Shown: positions 14,135 through 24,809 of the stretch, piece after piece
Layout: each line of letters starts with the position of its first letter
How positions within the stretch are numbered: position 1 is the stretch's first letter
Assembly (NCBI GenBank): GCA_964619115.1
Contig: CAZUEB010000003.1
Location: 2,764 to 39,282 of the forward strand
Reading direction: 5' to 3'
Length of the DNA stretch: 36,519 nt
DNA from: an uncultured Dehalococcoidales bacterium
GTDB lineage: Bacteria; Chloroflexota; Dehalococcoidia; GIF9; UBA5629
The notes under the pieces: generated by a model
What the model saw: only the letters and a program-made list of their open reading frames with translations
What the model was told of the DNA's origin: nothing
Database searches by the model: none
Translations under genes and position numbers: made by a program

Positions 14135-15910
14135 ATGTGCGGCATTATCGGCTATTGCGGCAGACAAACAGCGGCTCCACTTGTTTTTGAATGCTTAAAG
14201 CGTGTGGAATACCGTGGTTATGATTCTGCAGGCATGGCTACTATATCTGATGGGCAACTGTTTTTAAAAAAAGATACCGGCAAGCTTGAGGAGATTGAGA
14301 GCAAACATATCTTGAGTTCGTTGTCCGGTAATATAGCTATCGGACATACCCGCTGGGCTACTCATGGCGGCGTTACTACAGCCAATGCTCACCCCCATTG
14401 TGACTCAACTGGCACCATAGCTGTTGTCCACAATGGCATAATTGAGAACTATCAGGAGCTACGTCAGCATCTCACCAGCAACGGGCATCATTTTGTTTCA
14501 GAAACCGATACCGAAGTCATACCTCATCTTATTGAAGAGGAAATGAAAAATGGGTGTTCTCTTGAAATGGCGGTTCTAGCTGTAGCACCGAAGCTTGAAG
14601 GCTCCTATTCTTTTCTGGTTATATCATCCCGTGATTCAGGCAAAATTGTTGGCACCAGAAAAGACAACCCTTTGGCTATTGGGATAGGCGAGGATGGCTA
14701 TTTTGTTGCCAGCGACGCTTTGGCTTTCTCAGGGTTGGCTAATCAACTGGTGCCTCTGGCTGACACTGAGGTAGCGGTACTAACATCAAAAGGGGTTGAG
14801 ATTTTCGATGCCGCAGGTAATAAGCTGAAAAAAGAAGCACGGCATATTGACTTGCAATGGTGCGATAGTGATAAACAGGGCTACCAGTTTTTCATGCTTA
14901 AAGAGATTATGGAGCAACCACAGACTATTGAGGCAGCTACCAATCAGGATAAAGAGTCATTCACCAAGATTGCCATGGATATACTTAGAGCTGGTCAAGT
15001 GATAGTCACCGCTTGTGGCACTTCCAGGTATGCTGCTCTGGTTGGCAGGTACCTCTTCTCCAAAGTTGGCAGAAAGTTTTGTGATGTGGTTATGGCGTCC
15101 GAATTTCATTATTTCGCTGATTCTGTAGATAGGAATACCGTGGTCTTAGCTGTCTCACAGAGTGGCGAGACGTCAGACGTAATCGAAGGTGTAAAAAGGG
15201 CCAGAGAGGCTGGCGCCCAAATCGTTTCTATCGTCAACAGGCCATATTCTCAGCTAGCTGAGATGAGCCATCATGTTATCTATCTTAATTGTGGTCCTGA
15301 GCTATGTGTCGCAGCTACCAAGTCTTTCATCAGTCAGTTGGTTGTCTTCTATCTTTTGTCGTTTTCCATGGTCAACTCTTTTGATAAAGCCGTTACCGAT
15401 CTCAAAAACATCAGCAATAAAGTGGCTAAAACTATCGAATGGAACAATGACAAGATTAGTACGCTGAGCCAGGAATTGAAGACCACGAATGATTTCTACT
15501 ATATAGCCAGGGGGATTAACTTCGCCATCGCCTCCGAGGGCGCTCTGAAGCTAAAGGAAATCTCCTATATTCATGCAGAGGGTATGCCGGCAGGCGAACT
15601 CAAGCATGGTACCCTAGCCCTTATCGAACAAAGGACCCCTGTAGCTGTAATCTGCCCCGATGACTATACTTACCGTGAAACATTAAGCAATGCCACGGAG
15701 GCTAAGTCAAGAGGTGCTTATATTATTGCCGTCTCTGATAGAAAAAATGAGATTTATGATTTCTGGGTCAAGATTCCCAAAGTCGACGAGCTCTTATATC
15801 CCATAATCGCTGTAGTCCCGCTTCAGCTCCTGGCATACCACCTGGCGGTTAGCCGGGGATATGACCCTGATAGACCCAGGAATTTGGCAAAATCAGTCAC
15901 GGTAAAGTGA
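14135..15910 (+). CDS. glmS: Glutamine--fructose-6-phosphate aminotransferase (isomerising)
   Basis: N-terminal nucleophile MCGIIGY, an Ntn glutaminase domain, two SIS domains (SQSGETSD) and a C-terminal LAKSVTVK. Confidence 0.95.
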   Translation: MCGIIGYCGRQTAAPLVFECLKRVEYRGYDSAGMATISDGQLFLKKDTGKLEEIESKHILSSLSGNIAIGHTRWATHGGVTTANAHPHCDSTGTIAVVHNGIIENYQELRQHLTSNGHHFVSETDTEVIPHLIEEEMKNGCSLEMAVLAVAPKLEGSYSFLVISSRDSGKIVGTRKDNPLAIGIGEDGYFVASDALAFSGLANQLVPLADTEVAVLTSKGVEIFDAAGNKLKKEARHIDLQWCDSDKQGYQFFMLKEIMEQPQTIEAATNQDKESFTKIAMDILRAGQVIVTACGTSRYAALVGRYLFSKVGRKFCDVVMASEFHYFADSVDRNTVVLAVSQSGETSDVIEGVKRAREAGAQIVSIVNRPYSQLAEMSHHVIYLNCGPELCVAATKSFISQLVVFYLLSFSMVNSFDKAVTDLKNISNKVAKTIEWNNDKISTLSQELKTTNDFYYIARGINFAIASEGALKLKEISYIHAEGMPAGELKHGTLALIEQRTPVAVICPDDYTYRETLSNATEAKSRGAYIIAVSDRKNEIYDFWVKIPKVDELLYPIIAVVPLQLLAYHLAVSRGYDPDRPRNLAKSVTVK

Positions 15911-15917
15911 TGATTTT

Positions 15918-15976
15918 TAGAGATGGATAGAGATTAGTTGAGATTGGTTGAGGCTGTAGAGATTGGTAGAGAATGG
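15918..15976 (+). repeat. Tandem decanucleotide array, six units (consensus TAGAGATTGG / TTGAGATTGG)
   Basis: Units: tagagatgga tagagattag ttgagattgg ttgaggctg tagagattgg tagagaatgg. The last unit contains the ATG (15973) of the four-helix-bundle gene. Confidence 0.85.
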
Positions 15977-16350
15977 GTAAATCGTTTGAAGACCTTGAGG
16001 TATGGCAGATGGGAAAAAACATAGTTATGGAGACCTACCAGATAAGCAGGCATTTTCCCAATGAAGAATCCTTTGTATTGGTTTCCCAGATTAAACGAGC
16101 CGCTTTATCTGTACCAGCTAACATTGCTGAAGGCTTTGGACGCTATCACTACCTTGACAAAGCCAAATTCTATCTCAATGCTCGAGGCTCGCTTTATGAA
16201 CTCAAGAGCCATTTGCCTATTGCACAGGAACTCGGTTATTTCAATCAATCTCAACCAATCACCAGTCTCTTAATCACCATCGACAAACTGGGTGTCAAAC
16301 TGAATAACCTAATCTCTAACTCTCGGAAGCTAAGTAAGGCATCTCAGTGA
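15973..16350 (+). CDS. Four-helix-bundle protein ('23S rRNA intervening-sequence protein' family)
   Basis: 125 aa. FEDLEVWQ...VSQIKRAALSVPANIAEGFGRYHYLDKAKFYLNARGSLYELKSHL matches the characteristic motifs of this family. Confidence 0.85.
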   Translation: MGKSFEDLEVWQMGKNIVMETYQISRHFPNEESFVLVSQIKRAALSVPANIAEGFGRYHYLDKAKFYLNARGSLYELKSHLPIAQELGYFNQSQPITSLLITIDKLGVKLNNLISNSRKLSKASQ

Positions 16351-16390
16351 ATACTCAACCGGTCTCAATAAATCTCAATAAATCTCAACT
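16341..16390 (-). repeat. Tandem decanucleotide array in inverted orientation relative to 15918-15976 (plus-strand units AATCTCAAnn)
   Basis: Units: atctcagtga atactcaacc ggtctcaata aatctcaata aatctcaact. AATCTCAA is the reverse complement of TTGAGATT. More degenerate copies lie at 16241-16280, inside the 3' end of the CDS; CTCAACCAATC at 16250-16260 is the exact complement of 15942-15952. Confidence 0.75.
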
Positions 16391-17081
16391 TGTGCTCATC
16401 GCTGCCATTCCTTGTCTGAATGAGGAGCAGTTCATCAAAGATATAGTAACTAGAACTCGCAGATACGTTGATAAAGTGATTGTTATAGATGATGGGTCAA
16501 CTGACAATACCTCTAAAGTAGCTAAAGATGCTGGTGCTGAGGTCATAAGGCATGGAACGAGGCAGGGTGCTGGAGCGGCTACCAGGTCGGCGTTCGAAGC
16601 GGCAAAAACATGTGGTGCTGATGTGATGGTGACTCTGGATGGCGATGGTCAGCACAATCCTGATGAGATTCCGCAGGTTCTGGCTCCGATTCTTCATGGT
16701 GAGGCAGACCTGGTCATTGGCTCCCGCTTTCTCCAACCCGCTCAACAAACCCAAGAAACTCAAAGAACTAATATCCGGCGTTATCGTAAATTCGGTATCG
16801 ACGTAATCACGTGGTTGTACAACTTCGGCTCGAGGATAAAGGTATCTGATTCACAGAGCTGCTTCCGTGCCCATAGTCGAAAGCTGCTCGATGCCATAAA
16901 TATCACAGAAAGCGGTTTTAGTTTCAGTGTTGAAGTCTTAATTAAATCCAGAAGAAGGGGCCTGGTCATCGCTGAAGCGCCCATCTCCTGCGTCTATCAC
17001 TCCCAGGGCTCCAGCCTTAATCCTGTAGCGCACGGCCTTGGTGTTGCCTTTGCCGTGATAAAGCTCCGCCTCTTAAGGTAG
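16347..17081 (+). CDS. Family-2 glycosyltransferase (soluble, DPM1/GtrB-like catalytic domain, no C-terminal TM helices)
   Basis: Motifs: AIPCLNEE, VIVIDDGSTDNT, TLDGDGQHNPDEIP. The start is uncertain. GTG 16347 overlaps the upstream stop (GTGA), but the first 15 codons are encoded by the decamer array. GTG 16392 (MLIAAIPCLNEE) gives a typical GT2 N-terminus. Confidence 0.8.
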   Translation: MNTQPVSINLNKSQLVLIAAIPCLNEEQFIKDIVTRTRRYVDKVIVIDDGSTDNTSKVAKDAGAEVIRHGTRQGAGAATRSAFEAAKTCGADVMVTLDGDGQHNPDEIPQVLAPILHGEADLVIGSRFLQPAQQTQETQRTNIRRYRKFGIDVITWLYNFGSRIKVSDSQSCFRAHSRKLLDAINITESGFSFSVEVLIKSRRRGLVIAEAPISCVYHSQGSSLNPVAHGLGVAFAVIKLRLLR

Positions 17082-17140
17082 AAGTATGACCAGTAAGTGA
17101 AAGCTAATAAACTCAATAACACGGATAAAAGGAGGCTAAA

Positions 17141-18364
17141 ATGAGCTTGAAGAGCAAGAACGTATTCATCACCGGCGTAAGCGGCTTTGTCGGTTCAAAT
17201 ATGGCAAAGCATGCCCTAAATGAAGGAGCCAATGTCTTCGGGCTGGTTAGAAGGCGGGCTGATGGCAGCCTCCCGCAAAATATTAAATATCTGGGAATTG
17301 AGAATGAGGTTGTCTTACTGGAAGGAGATGTGCGAGACATTTCCAGCGTTGCCTTTGCTTTAGACCAGGCTAAGCCGGATATCGTCTTTCATCTAGCTGC
17401 CCAGTCTTTTATTCCCAGGTCATTTTGTTCTCCGACTGAAACCATGGATATCAATTGTATGGGGACGGCTAATCTCCTTGAGGCAATCAGAAATAAAGGC
17501 TTGGATGCTGCAATAGTTTTCGCAGGAAGCAGCGAGGAATATGGTCTCGTATTTTTCTTAGACTATCAGTATCAGCAAATCAAGAAGAAGTACGGGACAG
17601 TCTTCCCGGAGCCGACCAGCATCCCTGAATTGCCCATAACTGAGACCAATCCTCTTCGTCCCATGTCTCCCTATGCCGTCAGCAAGGTTTACGCTGATTA
17701 TCTTATGAGAAACTATCATGCCTGTTATGGATTGAAAACAATAGTCTCTAGAGGCTTCAATCAGGAAGGGGCTGGCCGAGGCACGATGTTTGTGACCGCG
17801 TCGATTACTCGACAGGTGATGCAATACAAGCGTGGTGAAATCGATAAGCTAGTTATAGGCAATGTCAATGCCTTCAGGGACTGGTCGCATGTCAATGATA
17901 TTCTGAAGGGATACTGCCTGCTGGCTGAAAAAGGCAGATATGGAGACGTTTACAACCAGGGCTCACAGAGGACAAACTCGGTGCTGAGCTATCTCCTGCT
18001 TAGTCTGGAATGTGCTGGATATGCTGTGAATAGAATTGAGACGCTTGGTGGCAAGAAAGCGGTAGATAATCCCAATGAGTTGGACAACTCAAAGATGTTC
18101 GGGCTTGGCTTTGAAAAGACGAAGGTGGATAAGCTGATGCTGGAAGGTAAATTGGAGTTCCAGCTTTCGGATAGAGGAATTTTTGTTACTACCGATAAAG
18201 GAAAAATAACTATAGAGTTTGATGAGGAAAAGTTCAGACCGGCTGAAGTGCCGATTTTGTTGACCAAAACGGCAAAGATTGAAGAACTCGGCTTTAAGGT
18301 GCGGCATAGCCTCAGGGACATAATTAATGACCAGTTGAACTATTTCTTGGACGCGTCTCGCTAG
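17141..18364 (+). CDS. Extended-SDR NDP-sugar dehydratase/epimerase, GDP-mannose-4,6-dehydratase-like N-terminus, with insertions
   Basis: AAGGAGG upstream. Motifs: FITGVSGFVGSNMAKH, VFHLAAQSF and the catalytic SPYAVSKVYAD (YxxxK). At 407 aa it is longer than typical family members. Confidence 0.75.
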   Translation: MSLKSKNVFITGVSGFVGSNMAKHALNEGANVFGLVRRRADGSLPQNIKYLGIENEVVLLEGDVRDISSVAFALDQAKPDIVFHLAAQSFIPRSFCSPTETMDINCMGTANLLEAIRNKGLDAAIVFAGSSEEYGLVFFLDYQYQQIKKKYGTVFPEPTSIPELPITETNPLRPMSPYAVSKVYADYLMRNYHACYGLKTIVSRGFNQEGAGRGTMFVTASITRQVMQYKRGEIDKLVIGNVNAFRDWSHVNDILKGYCLLAEKGRYGDVYNQGSQRTNSVLSYLLLSLECAGYAVNRIETLGGKKAVDNPNELDNSKMFGLGFEKTKVDKLMLEGKLEFQLSDRGIFVTTDKGKITIEFDEEKFRPAEVPILLTKTAKIEELGFKVRHSLRDIINDQLNYFLDASR

Positions 18365-18473
18365 CAGGACAAACTGCTTGTTGGTATGAGTTGCCGGCTT
18401 CGCCTCATTGCATTGCAGCACCGAAAGATTACTGGCACCTGGTAAGGTATTGGTGTAGTATAAGATTGTGCAG

Positions 18474-19577
18474 ATGAAGATTGCTGTAATTGTGGGTACC
18501 CGCCCCGAAATAATTAAGATGGCTCCGGTAGCAAGAGCGCTTGAGAGCAATAGGGTAAACTACTTTATCCTCCATACGGGGCAACACTATTCGTATAACC
18601 TGGATAGGGTCTTTTTTGAACAGCTAAGATTACAAGATGCTAGATATAACCTGGAGGTAGGTTCCGGCTCTCACGCGGAACAAACCGCTAAGATACTTAT
18701 CGGTGTGGAGAAAGTTCTTGAAATTGAAAAACCTGACATTGTTTTAGTTGAGGGTGATACTAACTCCGTGTTTGCTGGCGCAGTGGCAGCGGTTAAGCTC
18801 CATATATCCGTTGGGCATGTCGAAGCTGGTCTGCGAAGTTATGACAGGCAGATGCCCGAGGAAATCAATCGTATTCTAACCGACCATTGCTCCGATTACC
18901 TGTTTGCTCCGACGGAGAAGGCAGAGGCAATCCTCCTCGGTGAGGGCATCCACCGCGACAAGATATTTGTAACTGGTAATACCATCGTTGACGCTGTCTA
19001 TCAGAATCTGGAAATAGCTAAAAGAAGTTTTAAGTTCGATGTTACACCTATAACTTCAAACGCAGAACATAGAACCTTGAATCCTGAACCCAGAAACTAC
19101 TTCCTGATAACACTTCACCGCCAGGAGAACGTGGATAATGAGGCAAGGCTCTCTTCAATTCTAGAGGGGCTGGATAGAGTAACTACCGAGTTTGCATTAC
19201 CTGTAATTTATCCAATTCACCCCCGTTCTCGAAAGATGATGGAACATTTTAACCTTGACCCCAAGAACTTGAAACTTGTTGAACCTTTAGATTTCCTCTC
19301 CTTCCTTCAACTCGAATGCAATGCCAGGCTTATATTGACTGACTCTGGAGGAGTTCAGGAAGAGGCTTGTATACTCAAAGTCCCCTGCGTTACTCTGCGA
19401 GACAATACCGAGAGACCGGAAACCATTGATGTTGGCGCTAATATGCTAGCTGGTGCGTCTTCAGACAAAATACTCGATTGTGTTAAGATTATGATTAGCC
19501 GCGAGAATAACTGGATTAATCCTTTCGGCGATGGGAAAGCGGGCGAGAGGATAGTTGAAATCATAACAGGAGATTAA
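18474..19577 (+). CDS. wecB: UDP-N-acetylglucosamine 2-epimerase (non-hydrolysing)
   Basis: ATG 18474 (MKIAVIVGTRPEIIKMAPV); the track start is GTG 18468. Motifs: HTGQHY, VEGDTNS, HVEAGLRS, EEINR, TLHRQEN, TDSGGVQEE. Confidence 0.9.
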   Translation: MKIAVIVGTRPEIIKMAPVARALESNRVNYFILHTGQHYSYNLDRVFFEQLRLQDARYNLEVGSGSHAEQTAKILIGVEKVLEIEKPDIVLVEGDTNSVFAGAVAAVKLHISVGHVEAGLRSYDRQMPEEINRILTDHCSDYLFAPTEKAEAILLGEGIHRDKIFVTGNTIVDAVYQNLEIAKRSFKFDVTPITSNAEHRTLNPEPRNYFLITLHRQENVDNEARLSSILEGLDRVTTEFALPVIYPIHPRSRKMMEHFNLDPKNLKLVEPLDFLSFLQLECNARLILTDSGGVQEEACILKVPCVTLRDNTERPETIDVGANMLAGASSDKILDCVKIMISRENNWINPFGDGKAGERIVEIITGD

Positions 19578-19579
19578 CT

Positions 19580-20503
19580 ATGGCTAAAATATTGATTACT
19601 GGTGGCAGTGGCTTTATTGGCTCAAATCTTGTCCCTGAACTAACAAGACGGGGACACGAAGTCTGGATTTGTGACTTAGGTCATTCAGAGTGCCAAAACT
19701 ACACCCGCTGCGATGTTACCGAATACCGCCAGCTGGAAAGGATTTTCGAGCGGCATGACTTTGATTATGTATATCATCTGGCGGCAGAGTACGGACGCTG
19801 GAACGGCGAGGACTATTATGAAAACCTGTGGCTGACCAATGTGATAGGTACTAAGAATATGCTTCGGATTCAGGAGCAGAAGAAGTTCCGCATGATATTC
19901 TTTTCCAGTGCCGAGGTCTACGGAGATTATGATGGGATAATGAGTGAAGACGTGATGGACAAAGTAGCTATAAAACAGATGAACGACTACGCTATAACTA
20001 AATGGGCGGGAGAGCTACAGTGCTTGAACTCTCAAGCCATGTTCGGCACGGAGACTGTCAGGGTTAGACCGGTCAATGCTTACGGTCCGCACGAGCATTA
20101 CAGCCCCTACCGTGGCGTAATCCCGGCTTTTATTTATAAGGCTCTGCATGATGAGCCGTATACAGTCTATCTGGGGCACAAGCGTATCTTCGATTATGTG
20201 GAAGATACCTGTCGCACATTCGCCAACATTGTAGATAACTTCATACCCGGCGAAGTTTATAACATCGGAGGCAAAGAGGAGTGGGAGCACGATATCAAAT
20301 ATGTTTCCGACCTGATATTAAAAAATCTGGGCAAAACTGATGCTAAAGTCACCTATAAGGAAGCGGAGCCGTTTACAACGCGCTTCAAGCACATGGACTT
20401 CTCCAAATCCAGGAGAGACCTTAAGCACGCCCCCAAGGTTCCGCTGGAGGACGGAATCCCCAAGACTATTGAATGGATGCGCAAAGCCTACGGATTTAAG
20501 TAG
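19580..20503 (+). CDS. NAD-dependent epimerase/dehydratase (extended SDR)
   Basis: AGGAG lies 8 nt upstream. Motifs: ILITGGSGFIGSNL, SSAEVYG, YAITKWAGE (YxxxK). The specific substrate cannot be called. Confidence 0.8.
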   Translation: MAKILITGGSGFIGSNLVPELTRRGHEVWICDLGHSECQNYTRCDVTEYRQLERIFERHDFDYVYHLAAEYGRWNGEDYYENLWLTNVIGTKNMLRIQEQKKFRMIFFSSAEVYGDYDGIMSEDVMDKVAIKQMNDYAITKWAGELQCLNSQAMFGTETVRVRPVNAYGPHEHYSPYRGVIPAFIYKALHDEPYTVYLGHKRIFDYVEDTCRTFANIVDNFIPGEVYNIGGKEEWEHDIKYVSDLILKNLGKTDAKVTYKEAEPFTTRFKHMDFSKSRRDLKHAPKVPLEDGIPKTIEWMRKAYGFK

Positions 20504-20515
20504 CCCAATCCAAAC

Positions 20516-20557
20516 CTTGAACTTAAAACCTAGAACTTAGAACTTAGAACCTAGAAC
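20516..20557 (+). repeat. Heptanucleotide tandem array A, six units of NTAGAAC
   Basis: Units: cttgaac ttaaaac ctagaac ttagaac ttagaac ctagaac. The array ends 4 nt before ATG 20562. Confidence 0.9.
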
Positions 20558-20561
20558 TCTT

Positions 20562-21761
20562 ATGAAAATCCTTATTGTCCAGGAAAGCGATTGGCTCAAG
20601 AGAGGGCCACACCAACAACATCAGCTAGCAGACCGCCTTTCGCTTAGAGGTCACCAGATTCGGGTTATCGATTACGAGATTTTGTGGCGAGACCAGGACA
20701 AAAGGGAGCTTTATTCCAAAAGCCAGCTATTCGAAAATGTATTCAAGGTTAATCAAGGGGCGAAGGTCACCGTAATTCGTCCTGAAATAATTAAAATCCC
20801 CTTGCTGGATTATGTTTCTCTGATTTTCACCCATAGAACAGAAATCAAACACCAGATAGCGGAGTTTTCCCCCGACGTGATTATCGGTTTCAGTATACTG
20901 AATAGCTATCTGGCAATAAAGGCAGCCAGGAGAAATAACATCCCCTTCGTTTATTACTGGATAGACGTGTTACATCGATTGATACCATTTAAGCCGTTAC
21001 AGTTTCTCGGCAAGATATTGGAACACAGAACGCTAAGGCAAGCGGACAGGACGCTGACAATCAATGACAAGCTTAAAGACTATGTTATCACTGCCGGTGC
21101 CGCAGCCAGCAAAACTAGTGTAATCAGAGCTGGCATAGACGTTGAACAGTTTAAACCATCAGCAAGCATCGGCAATTTAAGGAAACAATATGGACTCAAG
21201 GAAACTGACACTGTATTGTTTTTTATGGGCTGGCTGTATCATTTCTCCGGCTTAAAAGAGGTAGCTCACGAGTTAACCAAAGAAACTAACAAGAACCTGA
21301 AATTACTTATAGTTGGCGAAGGCGATGCTTTTGAAGACCTTAAGCAAATACGAGATAAACACAATTTGCAGGACAGGCTCATCTTAACCGGGCAGAAGCC
21401 GTATACAGAGATGCCGGCTTTCATCTCTGCCTCGGATATATGCCTGTTACCGGCATACCCCTGGGAAAAAACAATGCATGACATAGTGCCCATTAAGTTG
21501 TATGAGTACATGGCTATGAAGAAACCAGTGATATCTACAAGACTGCCCGGAGTTATGAAGGAATTTGGTAAAAGCAACGGCGTAGTCTATGTTGATAAGC
21601 CAGCTGATGCCATCGTTAAAGCCAAAAGCCTTGTCAAAGATGGTAAAATAGTAGAGCTCGGCGATAAAGCCAGGAAATTTGTCCAGAAATACAGCTGGGA
21701 CAGAATAACCGACGAATTCGAGAAAATTCTAGAAGAAGTTGTAAAAAGTTCTAGGTTCTAA
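20562..21761 (+). CDS. GT-B fold glycosyltransferase, family 4-like
   Basis: 399 aa starting MKILIVQE. The C-terminal half has LLIVGEGD, the LILTGQKPY...ASDICLLP region and KLYEYMAMKKPVIST (an E-x7-E-like region). No Shine-Dalgarno sequence is visible upstream. Confidence 0.8.
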   Translation: MKILIVQESDWLKRGPHQQHQLADRLSLRGHQIRVIDYEILWRDQDKRELYSKSQLFENVFKVNQGAKVTVIRPEIIKIPLLDYVSLIFTHRTEIKHQIAEFSPDVIIGFSILNSYLAIKAARRNNIPFVYYWIDVLHRLIPFKPLQFLGKILEHRTLRQADRTLTINDKLKDYVITAGAAASKTSVIRAGIDVEQFKPSASIGNLRKQYGLKETDTVLFFMGWLYHFSGLKEVAHELTKETNKNLKLLIVGEGDAFEDLKQIRDKHNLQDRLILTGQKPYTEMPAFISASDICLLPAYPWEKTMHDIVPIKLYEYMAMKKPVISTRLPGVMKEFGKSNGVVYVDKPADAIVKAKSLVKDGKIVELGDKARKFVQKYSWDRITDEFEKILEEVVKSSRF

Positions 21762-21804
21762 GTTAAGAGGTTCAGAGTTCAACGTAGAACCTAGAACGTA
21801 GAAC
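21748..21804. repeat. Heptanucleotide array B: inverted units (GTTCTAN) followed by forward units (NTAGAAC), forming a 13-bp perfect hairpin
   Basis: Units: gttctag gttctaa gttaaga g gttcaga gttcaac gtagaac ctagaac gtagaac. 21748-21760 (GTTCTAGGTTCTA) is the exact complement of 21785-21797 (TAGAACCTAGAAC). The left arm contains the last codons and the TAA of the GT4 gene. Confidence 0.9.
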
Positions 21805-21819
21805 TTAAAAAGGAGCACC

Positions 21820-22818
21820 ATGAAACACTATATGAGCGAATATAAAGATAAAAACATCCTCATCACCGGTGGAGCTGGGTGCATTGGCAGTAATCTGACT
21901 AAAGCTCTAATAGAAGCCGAAGCCAGCAAAATAATCGTTCTTGACGACCTCTCAGCGGCTGAAAAATGGAATGTACCTGTTGACTCCAAGGTGATATTTA
22001 TCGAGGGCAGTGTATTGGATGAAGAAGCACTAAAGAGAGCGTTCTCTGCAAAACTCGACTTTGTCTTCCACCTGGCAGCGCACTTCGCCAATCAGAATTC
22101 AGTTGATAATCCTGAGACCGACCTCGAGGTCAACGGTCTCGGCACTCTCAAGGTACTCGAGTACACTCATCTTGCCAGAGTAAGCAAGTTTGTCTTCGCT
22201 TCATCCGGCTGCTCGGTTTACGGCAGCCAGGCACCGCTTCCATTGAAAGAGGATTACGTATCCCTACACCTCGACACTCCTTATCAAATCACCAAGCTTC
22301 TGGGTGAACTTTACTGCAATTTCTTCCACAACTATTATGGCTTGCCTGTAGCCATAGCCCGATACTTTAATGTTTATGGTCCCGGTGAAATACCAGGCGC
22401 TTACCGCAACGTCATTCCCAATTTCATGTGGTGGGCACTGCACAAGATGCCCCTCCCCATAACCGGCACCGGTGAGGAGACCCGGGATTTCACCTATGTT
22501 GAAGACATAGTTGACGGCACGTTACGACTCGGGGCAATACCTCAGGCGGTAGGCGATGCCTTCAACCTGGCGTCGGAAACAGAAACCAGGGTGATTGATA
22601 TAGCTAATATGGTCAATGAGCTAACGGGAAACCCGTCAGGCGTCGCCTTTAAACCTCGCCGCGATTGGGACCAGATTACACGCCGGAGAGCCTCCATAGA
22701 GAAAGCCAGGAAAGCCCTCGGTTATGAGCCAGGAACAAAAATAAAAGATGGGATAAAAAGAGTATACGCTTGGATTGTCGAAAACCAGGATAACATAGAG
22801 GCCTGTGCCAGGTTCTAA
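21820..22818 (+). CDS. NAD-dependent epimerase/dehydratase (extended SDR; UDP-sugar 4-epimerase / decarboxylase-like)
   Basis: AAGGAG lies 5 nt upstream. Motifs: ILITGGAGCIGSNL, VFHLAAHFANQ, SSGCSVYG, YQITKLLGE. Confidence 0.8.
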   Translation: MKHYMSEYKDKNILITGGAGCIGSNLTKALIEAEASKIIVLDDLSAAEKWNVPVDSKVIFIEGSVLDEEALKRAFSAKLDFVFHLAAHFANQNSVDNPETDLEVNGLGTLKVLEYTHLARVSKFVFASSGCSVYGSQAPLPLKEDYVSLHLDTPYQITKLLGELYCNFFHNYYGLPVAIARYFNVYGPGEIPGAYRNVIPNFMWWALHKMPLPITGTGEETRDFTYVEDIVDGTLRLGAIPQAVGDAFNLASETETRVIDIANMVNELTGNPSGVAFKPRRDWDQITRRRASIEKARKALGYEPGTKIKDGIKRVYAWIVENQDNIEACARF

Positions 22819-22834
22819 TTATCGACACAAAAAC

Positions 22835-22876
22835 GTAGAACGTAGAACCTAGAACATAGAACATAGAACATAGAAT
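22835..22876 (+). repeat. Heptanucleotide tandem array C, six units of NTAGAAC
   Basis: Units: gtagaac gtagaac ctagaac atagaac atagaac atagaat. An inverted unit AGGTTCTA at 22810-22817, carrying the stop codon of the preceding gene, is complementary to 22843-22850. Confidence 0.9.
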
Positions 22877-22908
22877 TCTCATGTGCCAGATTTTAGCTTG
22901 TTAGGAGA

Positions 22909-23991
22909 ATGATGCCATCTAAACTTAACGTTGCCATAGTGGGTTGTGGTGCTGTAGCCGATAAGCGCCATATTCCCAGTTTTGCCAGGTTGAAAGACAG
23001 GGTCGTTGTGCGGGCTGTATGTGATAAAAATGAAGAACTGGCAAGACAAGTCGCCTTGAGACATCGAATTCCCAAAGTGTTTGTTAGTCAGGCAGAGATG
23101 CTCAAGGCTGAAAAAGTCGACATGGTTGATGTCTGCACTCCACCTCAGATACATGCTCCCATAGCAGTTGAGGCGCTTGAGGCCGGTTGCCATGTGCTGA
23201 TGGAAAAACCCATGGCGCTTACTACTGCTGATTGTGACAAGATGATAGAGGCAGCAGCAAAGAACAATCGCAAACTTTGCATTGTTCATAACGTGCTCTT
23301 TCATCCCCCGCTTATCAAAGCCAGAGAGCTGGTCAAAGCGGGAGCCATAGGCGATTTCAGAGGCATGAGAATTCTGTTATCAGACCCGAAAGATGAAATG
23401 ATAATGCGCCAGGACTACTGGATACACAAGCTGCCCGGTGGATTGATTGGTGAAACTGGTCCTCATCCTGTCTATATCTCCCTGGCTTTTCTGGATAGGG
23501 TTAATAATGTGGAAGTATTCGCCAAAAATTACCTGGTGCATCCCTGGGCACCATTTGATGAGTTCAGGCTCGATCTCGATGCTGGTAATGGCATTAGTTC
23601 CGTGGCTATCTCATATTCCGGTGAACGATATGCTGCGGAGGTAGAGATATTCGGTTCAGAAGGTGCTCTTTATATAGACCTCCAGAGCATGCTGCTGGTG
23701 AAACACGGCATTAAGAAAACGCTCAGTTCCGCTAAGTTAGTCTCAACATCTCTCAGCACGGTAACGCAAACTATCAGCGGTCTCATAGCCAACGGATTCA
23801 AGACAATCACCGGCCAGTTCAGAGTGGGACACGAGAAAATAGTGGAGCTATTCGTCGATAGCATTATCAAAGGTACGGCTCCGCCTGTTACAGGTGAAGA
23901 AGGGCGCGAGGTTATAAGGGTAATGGAGATGATAGTCGACAGGCTTTATACCAAATACGGTCGCCCTCAACCATCTAAACCTAGAACCTAG
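22909..23991 (+). CDS. Gfo/Idh/MocA-family NAD(P)-dependent sugar oxidoreductase
   Basis: N-terminal Rossmann fold VAIVGCGAVADKRHIPSF and the EKP motif VLMEKPMALT. AGGAG at 22903-22907 favours the second ATG (22912) as the start. Confidence 0.85.
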   Translation: MMPSKLNVAIVGCGAVADKRHIPSFARLKDRVVVRAVCDKNEELARQVALRHRIPKVFVSQAEMLKAEKVDMVDVCTPPQIHAPIAVEALEAGCHVLMEKPMALTTADCDKMIEAAAKNNRKLCIVHNVLFHPPLIKARELVKAGAIGDFRGMRILLSDPKDEMIMRQDYWIHKLPGGLIGETGPHPVYISLAFLDRVNNVEVFAKNYLVHPWAPFDEFRLDLDAGNGISSVAISYSGERYAAEVEIFGSEGALYIDLQSMLLVKHGIKKTLSSAKLVSTSLSTVTQTISGLIANGFKTITGQFRVGHEKIVELFVDSIIKGTAPPVTGEEGREVIRVMEMIVDRLYTKYGRPQPSKPRT

Positions 23992-24029
23992 AACGTAGAA
24001 CCTAGAACTTAGAACGTAGAACTTTGAAA
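23974..24029 (+). repeat. Heptanucleotide tandem array D, about eight units of NTAGAAC
   Basis: Units: tctaaac ctagaac ctagaac gtagaac ctagaac ttagaac gtagaac tttgaaa. The array starts inside the last codons of the oxidoreductase gene (AAA CCT AGA ACC TAG) and ends 3 nt before ATG 24033. Confidence 0.9.
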
Positions 24030-24032
24030 CAG

Positions 24033-24809
24033 ATGCCACAGAAAGAAAAGGAATCGGTCCAGCAGTTTTGGGACACAACTCCCTGCGGGACTGGCGATAT
24101 AAATATTGAGCCTGAGACACTCGAATACTTCGAGGCTATATCGGAAAAACGCAACAAACTGGAGCCATTTATCGCTGACTATGCCCAGTTTAATAGATGG
24201 GAAGGTAAGGGAGTGCTGGAGGTGGGGTGTGGCGCTGGTAGCGACCTGTTGCGCTTTGCTAAAGCAGGTTCTCTTATCACGGGCGTAGATTTATCATCGC
24301 ACTCAGCTTCACTGGCAAAGACCAGACTGCGTTTTTACAATTGCCAGGGCAACGTACTAATAGCCGATGCCGAACAATTGCCCTTTAAAGCAGGTTCATT
24401 CGACCTGGTATATTCCTGGGGTGTCTTGCACCACACGCCTGATACTGAACAAGCTATTAAAGAAGTGTATCGTGTAACCAGGACGGGCGGTGAGGTTTGT
24501 ATTATGCTCTACCACAGGCATTCGCTGGTCGCTCTACAAATGTATCTCAGGTACGGTCTTTTTGCCTTTAAGCCTTTGAGGAGCTTGAAAGACATACTCG
24601 CCAAACACCATGAAAGCCCGGGCACGAAAGCCTATACTGCAGTCGAGACCCGGAAGATGTTCTCGGCGTTTGAAGATGTGAAAATAAAGTTTCGCCTCAC
24701 TCCTTACGACCTTCGCTACAAGAGGGACGGATACTTCCCGTCATGGGTTGGCAAATTTATCCCACAGCGTCTCGGATGGTTCATGGTCATACGGGGGCGA
24801 AAATCTTGA
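24033..24809 (+). CDS. Class I SAM-dependent methyltransferase (Methyltransf_11-like)
   Basis: ATG 24033 (MPQKEKESVQQFWDTTPCG); the track start at TTG 24024 lies inside the repeat. Motif I is VLEVGCGAGSDLLRFA; also DLVYSWGVLHHTPD. Confidence 0.8.
   Translation: MPQKEKESVQQFWDTTPCGTGDINIEPETLEYFEAISEKRNKLEPFIADYAQFNRWEGKGVLEVGCGAGSDLLRFAKAGSLITGVDLSSHSASLAKTRLRFYNCQGNVLIADAEQLPFKAGSFDLVYSWGVLHHTPDTEQAIKEVYRVTRTGGEVCIMLYHRHSLVALQMYLRYGLFAFKPLRSLKDILAKHHESPGTKAYTAVETRKMFSAFEDVKIKFRLTPYDLRYKRDGYFPSWVGKFIPQRLGWFMVIRGRKS

Follow-up and report, generated by a model that had tools for sequence, protein, structure and literature searches.

TAGAAC heptanucleotide arrays in a Dehalococcoidia glycan operon as probable arm repeats of small PF05635 cassettes

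What are short tandem arrays of a single heptanucleotide doing in four consecutive gaps of one operon, and where did they come from? The question is raised by a 36,519-nt stretch of DNA from an uncultured Dehalococcoidales bacterium (contig CAZUEB010000003.1), called the window below, in which (N)TAGAAC heptads form four arrays on the + strand, A to D, one in each consecutive gap of a Dehalococcoidia glycan operon. Their positions, given in a preliminary description of the sequence, were confirmed by the sequence itself and by repeat calls. Bacterial heptanucleotide tandem repeats have been reported since 1990, and no other long simple-sequence repeats are as over-represented, yet we know of no accepted origin or function for them. 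Proteins of the PF05635/TIGR02436 four-helix-bundle family are very abundant. Our data connect these two puzzles, because PF05635 genes share either a site or a genome with empty hairpins and solo arrays of a cassette unit. With a probability of roughly 60%, we read the TAGAAC arrays as arm repeats, mostly leftovers, of small selfish cassettes that encode a PF05635/TIGR02436 protein.

The argument starts at site B, between the gene for a family 4 glycosyltransferase (GT4; 20562-21761, +) and the second of two short-chain dehydrogenase/reductase (SDR) genes (SDR2; 21820-22818, +). A left arm of inverted units (21748-21783, +; GTTCTAG, GTTCTAA, GTTAAGAG, GTTCAGA, GTTCAAC) is here joined directly to a right arm of three direct units (21784-21804, +; GTAGAAC, CTAGAAC, GTAGAAC). 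The inverted units from 21748 onwards had been noticed before and are indeed present; GT4 takes its final codons, stop included, from the first two of them. The earlier count of 6-8 heptads per array holds for A (6), C (6) and D (7) but not for B, which has only the three direct units of its short inverted pair. The two arms of site B contain a perfect 13-bp inverted repeat (21748-21760 and 21785-21797) with 24 nt between its halves. As RNA the site folds at -21.9 kcal/mol (z = -4.7), and none of 200 shuffled sequences folded equally well.

In related operons a gene lies at this site. The GFO/IDH/MocA oxidoreductase (GFO) of locus L128 (same species as L552 and L553) shares 91% identity with that of the window. 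In L128 the 3' end of GT4 holds inverted units, which are followed by a 129-aa PF05635/TIGR02436 gene, by the units GTAGAAC, ATAGAAC and GTAGAAC, and then by SDR2. In L563 the arms are homologous to those of the window and the PF05635 open reading frame (ORF) is a pseudogene, broken by a Trp-to-TAG change. In the window the left arm runs straight into the right arm and the PF05635 gene is absent. Because an intact gene in L128 and a pseudogene in L563 lie between homologous arms that are fused in the window, we have high confidence, from this comparison of sequences, that site B represents a PF05635 cassette that lost its ORF and kept its arms as a hairpin.

A more distant Dehalococcoidia locus, L187, shows a different arrangement at site B: direct TAGAAC arrays bracket a PF05635 gene together with an aspartic-protease-like ORF. 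Four long TAGAAC arrays in all lie around this ORF, the PF05635 gene and SDR2, and a 17-unit array stands immediately past the SDR orthologue. The protease-like ORF (L187 1893-2249) encodes 118 aa of the clan AA (retropepsin-like) type and has direct TAGAAC arrays on both of its sides, next to the PF05635 gene. Thus, arrays can flank other small ORFs too.

Arrays are a local feature of this operon family. Among 160 related loci, TAGAAC arrays occur only in the L128/L552/L553 species, in L563 and in L187. The loci L126, L127, L135, L144 and L185 have the order Epi2-SDR1-GT4-SDR2, with or without GFO and a methyltransferase (MT) gene to follow, with gaps of about 0-40 bp and no arrays. Since these array-less relatives keep the gene order and the compact gaps, the arrays are insertions into a compact operon and are dispensable to it. 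L128 has positional homologues of A, C and D in which the number of units differs (window versus L128: A, 6 versus 4-5; C, 6 versus 8; D, 7 versus 4). Its orthologous units are degenerate, and its array A (CCGAACT, TCAAACT, CTGAACT, TCGAACT) does not contain a single TAGAAC unit, so that these orthologues do not support the near-invariant TAGAAC core of the preliminary description. Differing unit numbers and degenerate units are the behaviour of slippage-prone, weakly constrained repeats. On a shorter time scale, the arrays were base-for-base identical in five independent metagenome assemblies, which diverge from the window by 0.06-0.5% elsewhere. They are thus neither an assembly artefact, a possibility that the preliminary description had named, nor hypervariable on that time scale, and the strain-level variation in unit number that had been suggested as a check was not seen among the near-identical strains of these five assemblies.

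At 15918-16390 the window also carries a single intact cassette, whose 10-nt units mark it as a different subtype. Its left arm (15918-15972, +) consists of about 5.5 units of period 10 (TAGAGATTGG-like) as called by Tandem Repeats Finder (TRF). The gene (15973-16350, +) encodes a four-helix-bundle protein of 125 aa (Pfam PF05635, 2.6e-31; NCBIfam TIGR02436, 3e-29) and is the sole member of its family in the window; the right arm (16354-16390, +) has period-10 units (TCTCAATAAA-like) complementary to those of the left. The inverted repeat of 33 nt formed by 15920-15952 and 16354-16386 is 79% complementary, and the global RNA fold of 15905-16400 is closed by the arm stem (z = -3.0). Loci of homologues 64-90% identical to this protein had tandem arms of period 10 or 11 in 11 of 11 cases, two-sided in most, and all of them lie in Dehalococcoidia glycan clusters. 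Within such clusters the homologues at L628-L641 come either after GlmS, between genes for family 2 glycosyltransferases (GT2) or after an SDR gene. Arms at L628-L641 are of the TAGAGATTNN type with up to 16 units (L634 500-667), and some of these loci adjoin HicB- or ParE-like toxin-antitoxin genes. PADLOC gave no match that would make PF05635 a member of a defence system.

Tandem arms proved to be a general property of PF05635 loci. We surveyed 80 such loci from many phyla, found with a query from a four-sequence alignment and encoding proteins 45-73% identical to the L128 protein; 76 were evaluable. Within 130 nt of the gene, a tandem repeat of period 6-10 lay upstream in 58 of the 76 and downstream in 68; 56 loci (74%) had both, against a background of 0.11 such repeats per 260 bp in the outer flanks. 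When periodicity was defined most strictly, with 80% identity or more required across 28 nt, it was found in 26% of upstream and 37% of downstream flanks, compared to 1.2% of 1145 control segments. The downstream arrays had a period of 7 in 55 of 68 cases. Of the 59 loci with two-sided arms, 42 had units that were reverse complements of each other and 5 had direct repeats.

The sequence of the unit follows the gene. The survey loci held 38 distinct heptads, and the arm unit was common to 4 of 5 protein pairs at 80% identity or more, to 29% of pairs at 60-70% and to 7-10% at 40-60%. AAC was present in 46 of 68 downstream units and GTT in 33 of 58 upstream units, the reverse arrangement being rare, and the average right-arm unit had much A and C and little G. 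A compositional rule that would tell left from right arms was rejected, since the heptad TACAGA serves as a left arm despite having the composition of TAGAAC. PF05635 ORFs (in L128, L187, L048 and L014) commonly extend into the right arm and stop within it; their C-termini are heptad-encoded and of the form ...(E/P)(P/H)RT. A stop triplet was present in 27 of 71 right-arm units versus 12 of 61 left-arm units. Altogether, these comparisons show complementary arms that co-vary with the gene, that differ in length from species to species through expansion and contraction, and that the host operon can do without.

We then turn from the gene to the repeat. When one genome per prokaryotic species was scanned for (TAGAACN)2TAGAAC, at least 120 loci were found; the counts that follow are among the matches listed. 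They come from Acidobacteriota, Shewanella, Pseudoalteromonas, Vibrio, Geobacter/Geomonas, candidate phyla radiation (CPR) bacteria, Chloroflexota, Bacteroidota, Planctomycetota and others, and about 92% of 154 TAGAAC arrays were intergenic. The proposal that arrays might be restricted to glycan loci was not borne out: the 133 neighbouring proteins spread over 238 Pfam families with no glycan bias. Nor were solo arrays always co-oriented with transcription, as had been envisaged, being sense in 25 and antisense in 18 cases relative to co-directional genes; 21 lay between convergent genes and 7 between divergent ones. A composition-matched control, (NTACAGA)3, also reached at least 120 loci in genomes; in viral sequences it gave 91 loci compared to 51 for TAGAAC. 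As the control heptad is as common as TAGAAC or more so, TAGAAC is one flavour of a general class, and we rejected the idea that it is a special conserved motif.

The topology of paired arrays was strikingly one-sided. TAGAAC pairs had the order GTTCTA...TAGAAC in 18 cases and the opposite order in 1 (41 versus 7 by alignment score), whereas for TACAGA the polarity was reversed, with the partner downstream in 17 cases and upstream in 1 (L286-L405). Both topologies would make equally good hairpins, and the one-sided bias is therefore better explained by common cassette descent, or by some functional asymmetry, than by slippage acting independently. The loops of the TAGAAC pairs measured 9-78 nt (16 pairs) or 464-505 nt with a PF05635 gene inside (L014 and L060), and TACAGA arrays stood 5' of PF05635 genes in L308, L316, L341 and L398. 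One metagenome-assembled genome (MAG) contained both a loaded cassette (L014) and an empty hairpin (L021) of the same TAGAACG unit, and single MAGs gave several TAGAAC loci (for example L003, L005, L028 and L074 from one MAG). Each of the two array-selected sets had PF05635 genes at a density of about 8 per Mb, and at least 4 of the 7 in each directly adjoined an array.

Three further observations concern the arrays of other genomes. The control heptad TACAGA is similar to GACAGAT, the unit repeated upstream of the Coxiella S23p ORF. TAGAAC arrays often abut arrays of other heptads (CTAGGGG, GGTCTAA, CACCTGG, TAGAAGT, GAACTAG; L004, L017, L042, L091, L103, L104, L112, L117 and others), so that several heptad families coexist at one site. 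On four related contigs from IMG/VR, labelled 'viral' (L443, L446, L447 and L423), TAGAAC arrays are spaced exactly 1710 bp apart, which suggests a repeated gene-plus-array unit.

We propose that a full cassette would consist of a left arm of tandem short units, an ORF of about 380 bp and a right arm of reverse-complement units, the arms of the TAGAAC subtype being (GTTCTAN)n on the left and (NTAGAAC)n on the right. Because the arms are reverse-complementary, they can pair into a long stem with the ORF in its loop; such paired arms could form a double-stranded RNA stem cleavable by RNase III, by analogy with ORF-bearing intervening sequences (IVS) of ribosomal RNA (rRNA). Arrays of this kind would have invaded a previously compact, probably translationally coupled operon, after which replication slippage and point mutation would lengthen, shorten and degrade them. 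A, C and D would be solo right arms, probably left behind by loss of the partner arm or by deletion between direct arrays, much like solo long terminal repeats, and deletion between directly repeated arrays could also occur in L187.

Arrays A, C and D fit this scheme in part. Array A (20516-20557, +; CTTGAAC, TTAAAAC, CTAGAAC, TTAGAAC, TTAGAAC, CTAGAAC) follows the first SDR gene (19580-20503, +) and has the exact TAGAAC core in 4 of its 6 units. It is a solo array of the right-arm type (AACNTAG), no inverted partner was found within 150 nt, and it ends 4 nt before the GT4 start codon, which has no Shine-Dalgarno sequence. Array C (22835-22876, +; GTAGAAC, GTAGAAC, CTAGAAC, ATAGAAC, ATAGAAC, ATAGAAT), after SDR2, is also a solo array of the right-arm type, and an AGGAG Shine-Dalgarno sequence stands between it and the GFO/IDH/MocA gene (22909-23991, +). 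Array D (23974-24022, +, with a degenerate tail to 24029; TCTAAAC, CTAGAAC, CTAGAAC, GTAGAAC, CTAGAAC, TTAGAAC, GTAGAAC and the tail unit TTTGAAA) has 7 heptads before its tail; it supplies the GFO stop codon (23989-23991), and the ATG of the methyltransferase gene (from 24036, +) follows about 13 nt past the array. As RNA, A (z = +1.26) and D (z = -0.85) are unstructured and C pairs weakly, over 8 bp, with the 3' end of the SDR gene (z = -1.4). Complementary terminal repeats able to close a stem are thus present at site B and in the intact cassette and not at A, C or D. Since the ORFs called in the window include no PF05635/TIGR02436 ORF at A, B, C or D, we class the four arrays as cassette arms or relics and not as full cassettes, and for A, C and D an origin as cassette-derived solo arms is a conclusion we draw, on sequence grounds, with moderate confidence.

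That arrays fill every gap from the SDR gene to the methyltransferase gene and occur nowhere else in the window, as the preliminary description had it, was fully upheld. Matches to TAGAACNTAGAAC with at most one mismatch numbered 18 in the window compared to 0.12 expected, a number reached by none of 100 shuffles; TRF called the arrays at period 7 with 3.4-6.4 copies; and a search of the whole window found no TAGAAC array beyond A-D, the only remaining short-period arrays being the period-10 repeats around the PF05635 gene at 15973-16350. The arithmetic by which a TAG stepping in sevens closes all three plus-strand frames is also right, GT4 ending in the inverted units and GFO in array D, and the further claim of minus-strand closure in array A holds, for that array only, where N is always C or T. 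The present effect of the arrays on the operon is probably incidental: they act as A-rich unstructured spacers with stops in all frames that uncouple neighbouring cistrons.

Some similarities among the arrays extend beyond the units. A and C have a common 3' flank, TCTYATG (window 20552-20564 and 22871-22882), and array D (24017-24035) has the 3' flank TTTGAA(A)CAGA in common with the site-B array of L128 (L128 2934-2965), both of which hint that array plus flank was copied between sites. The native C-terminus of SDR2 (...ARF stop, GGTTCTAA/G; window 22809-22818) amounts to one inverted heptad unit, which is also found in the array-less relatives L126 and L144 and at the 3' end of SDR2 in L187; this heptad may have seeded or attracted the array downstream.

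Several points weigh against a cassette origin of the arrays. A, C and D have neither a partner arm nor an ORF remnant, and their descent from cassettes is something we infer. Among the matches listed, about two thirds of the TAGAAC arrays elsewhere are solo and about 3% adjoin a PF05635 gene; as arrays far outnumber genes, the causal direction may be either that arms decay from cassettes or that genes settle into existing arrays. The arms are direct instead of inverted in L187 and four other loci. The window has no gene for a mobility enzyme, be it integrase, transposase or reverse transcriptase. The 80 surveyed PF05635 loci represent one subfamily, with one further subfamily checked. Finally, arm mismatches were G:U in 81 cases and A:C in 60 (p = 0.09), and with no significant G:U bias the arms may act either through an RNA stem or at the DNA level, as protein-bound terminal repeats or a cruciform.

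The alternative that survives best is that the arrays are ordinary heptanucleotide microsatellites, which arose in place by slippage, are neutral and have nothing to do with PF05635. Mrazek reportedly proposed in 2007 that replication slippage favours 7-nt units. The frequency of the control heptad, the variation of unit number and sequence between species at the same sites, and the fact that most arrays are solo and beside unrelated genes all agree with such an origin, as does the literature, in which heptamers rank first in abundance among the long simple-sequence repeats of bacteria (cited in PMC4679880; PMC4692102). However, independent slippage does not predict the one-sided topology of inverted pairs (18:1 for TAGAAC and 1:17 for TACAGA). 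Further points against it are the gene between homologous arms at site B of the relatives and the two-sided arrays at 74% of PF05635 genes over a low background, and the common 3' flanks of A and C and of D and L128 site B suggest copying of array plus flank. We therefore consider an origin as plain microsatellites unlikely.

A second alternative holds that the arrays are cis-acting RNA sites, in which UAG(AACN) would be bound by a multimeric protein (S1, a cold-shock protein, CsrA or a HutP/TRAP-like ring), or else unstructured standby or re-initiation pads that would govern how the downstream glycan genes are translated. UAG with a 4-nt spacer presumably resembles the HutP site. In favour, each of the four arrays lies on the sense strand, the solo ones are without structure as RNA, and start codons that have no Shine-Dalgarno sequence follow A by 4 nt and D by about 13 nt; the same idea was proposed for the TAACTGA heptamers upstream of start codons in Beggiatoaceae (PMC4679880). 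Yet the motif is not kept in orthologous arrays, array A of L128 having no UAG-bearing TAGAAC unit, and close relatives have the same operon without arrays, with a GT4 gene that also lacks a Shine-Dalgarno sequence. Moreover, solo arrays elsewhere are found in both orientations (the 25 sense and 18 antisense cases above) and often between convergent genes, and no candidate gene for a binding protein was found in the locus. A role as RNA sites thus appears quite improbable.

We attach just as little probability to the arrays being recombination substrates, that is, homology blocks or attachment sites through which genes would be swapped as cassettes by a RecA-dependent or integron-like route. 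Array lengths of 40-120 bp are sufficient for homologous recombination. The preliminary description had raised this possibility for single glycan genes, and of its hypotheses this alone gains partial support: small ORFs do lie between arrays at site B of L128, L563 and L187 and are gone in the window, PF05635 being present, pseudogenised or absent across the relatives, and L187 has two small ORFs, each between direct TAGAAC arrays, where the window has none. But the genes gained and lost are small selfish ORFs and not glycan genes, whose order is the same in the array-less relatives, and neither swap junctions nor content polymorphism was seen among the five near-identical strains. Furthermore, GTTRRRY / RYYYAAC, the core site of integrons, is not matched by the units, an integrase is not present nearby, and most PF05635 cassettes have inverted arms (42 versus 5), between which recombination would invert the intervening DNA instead of excising it.

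The remaining classes were rejected: CRISPR arrays, because the units are 7 nt and contiguous without spacers, in contrast to 21-48-nt repeats with unique spacers; integron attC sites, because GTTCTAN has pyrimidines where GTTRRRY / RYYYAAC needs purines and the window holds no integrase; a strict 23S rRNA IVS at helix 25 or 45, because the operon is protein-coding and Rfam finds no rRNA in the window; and phase-variable contingency repeats, because the arrays are identical in five assemblies, lie outside ORFs except as stop codons and have promoter-like sites only at chance level. The preliminary description had already set aside CRISPR, repetitive extragenic palindromes (REP) and terminators, with which Rfam, terminator scans and the structure of the units agree. 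No intrinsic terminator was found at any array and the regional count equalled the shuffled expectation, which was equally true of promoter-like sites, none of which was at an array; and Rfam searches gave nothing at the arrays at the gathering thresholds, nor, in 15500-24500 with E up to 5, any match except two eukaryotic chance matches.

How do cassettes with tandem arms compare with systems already described? The closest resemblance is to the ORF-bearing IVS of 23S rRNA in Leptospira and Coxiella burnetii, in which terminal inverted repeats close a loop that holds the ORF for a PF05635 protein; the family was first discovered within IVS of 23S rRNA. The Coxiella IVS contains the S23p ORF and a 28-bp terminal stem that is cut by RNase III, with heptamers (GACAGAT) upstream of the ORF whose number varies between strains, and ORF-bearing IVS are regarded as selfish elements without established mobility (PMC4990558). 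Unlike the rRNA IVS, the elements of the window lie in mRNA operons, both of their arms are tandem arrays, and most copies are without an ORF. Correia elements, enterobacterial repetitive intergenic consensus (ERIC) sequences and REP and bacterial interspersed mosaic elements (BIME) are similar in being small non-coding repeats within operons that are co-transcribed and form hairpins, and Correia elements are substrates of RNase III. Correia, ERIC and REP elements differ in having fixed-length arms of unique sequence and no four-helix-bundle ORF, and REPs depend on RAYT transposases. The Avd protein of diversity-generating retroelements (DGRs) is a homologous four-helix-bundle protein, but no reverse transcriptase, template repeat or variable repeat is nearby and no DGR context was found. 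The PF05635 protein of L187 gave a weak match to PF22296 (bAvd).

As repeats, the arrays belong to a known class. They have at least three tandem copies above chance, are intergenic and vary in length between species, as do the heptanucleotide simple-sequence repeats known as cyanobacterial short tandemly repeated repetitive (STRR) sequences and Mrazek's long simple-sequence repeats, LSSR(5-11), both cited by PMC4679880 and PMC4692102. TAACTGA repeats of Beggiatoaceae, cyanobacteria and Bacteroidetes are intergenic, frequently come right before start codons that lack a ribosome-binding site, and provide stops in all frames (PMC4679880). Of about 186 GGGAATC repeats in Xanthomonas campestris pv. 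campestris (Xcc), 70 form convergent pairs, and related species have repeats of other lengths at the same sites (PMC4692102). Like all of these, the TAGAAC arrays are tandem 7-nt units, intergenic, within operons and upstream of starts, with no pattern of gene function (PMC4679880, PMC4692102); convergent inverted pairs and different lengths at the same sites in relatives are likenesses to the GGGAATC class in particular. Unlike STRR, TAACTGA and GGGAATC repeats, the unit in the window is TAGAAC. What this analysis adds is evidence for a link to PF05635 cassettes, which seems under-described: PMC4679880 and PMC4692102 do not connect their repeats with PF05635 genes, and in the open full-text literature, subscription-only papers lying outside it, we found no link between heptamer arrays and PF05635 beyond the Coxiella IVS and no description of a general cassette architecture. 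A supplementary table for Xanthomonas places repeat #15 on the start codon of XCC0516, where four copies of GGGAATC overlap the start (PMC4692102). XCC0516 is the PF05635 protein of PDB entry 2GSC, which was crystallised with five chains.

More tentatively, tandem-armed PF05635 cassettes might be widespread, unrecognised selfish elements in most bacterial phyla, with arms that are functional cis-sites, stay complementary and co-evolve with the gene, and with decay products, namely empty hairpins and solo arrays, that make up a sizeable part of the heptanucleotide excess (STRR, TAACTGA and GGGAATC repeats); this wider claim is a possibility that we hold to be well short of an even chance. Such arms might be binding sites for the four-helix-bundle protein in its pentameric form, or RNase III might process them. 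Should the link prove to be genome-wide, both puzzles could be put to the test in organisms that can be cultured, such as Xanthomonas (XCC0516), Geobacter and Coxiella.

For annotation, such arrays should not be taken as operon regulators, and they can cause false ORF extensions and mis-called starts. The window has an example in its GT2 gene: the called 5' end of the GT2 ORF (16347-17081) takes in the right arm of the intact cassette (16354-16390), the Pfam match begins only at residue 20, and the true GT2 start is probably downstream of the right arm. Far from the operon, at 297-422 on the minus strand, the window also contains a cobalamin riboswitch aptamer (RF00174, 42 bits compared to a gathering score of 31.5).

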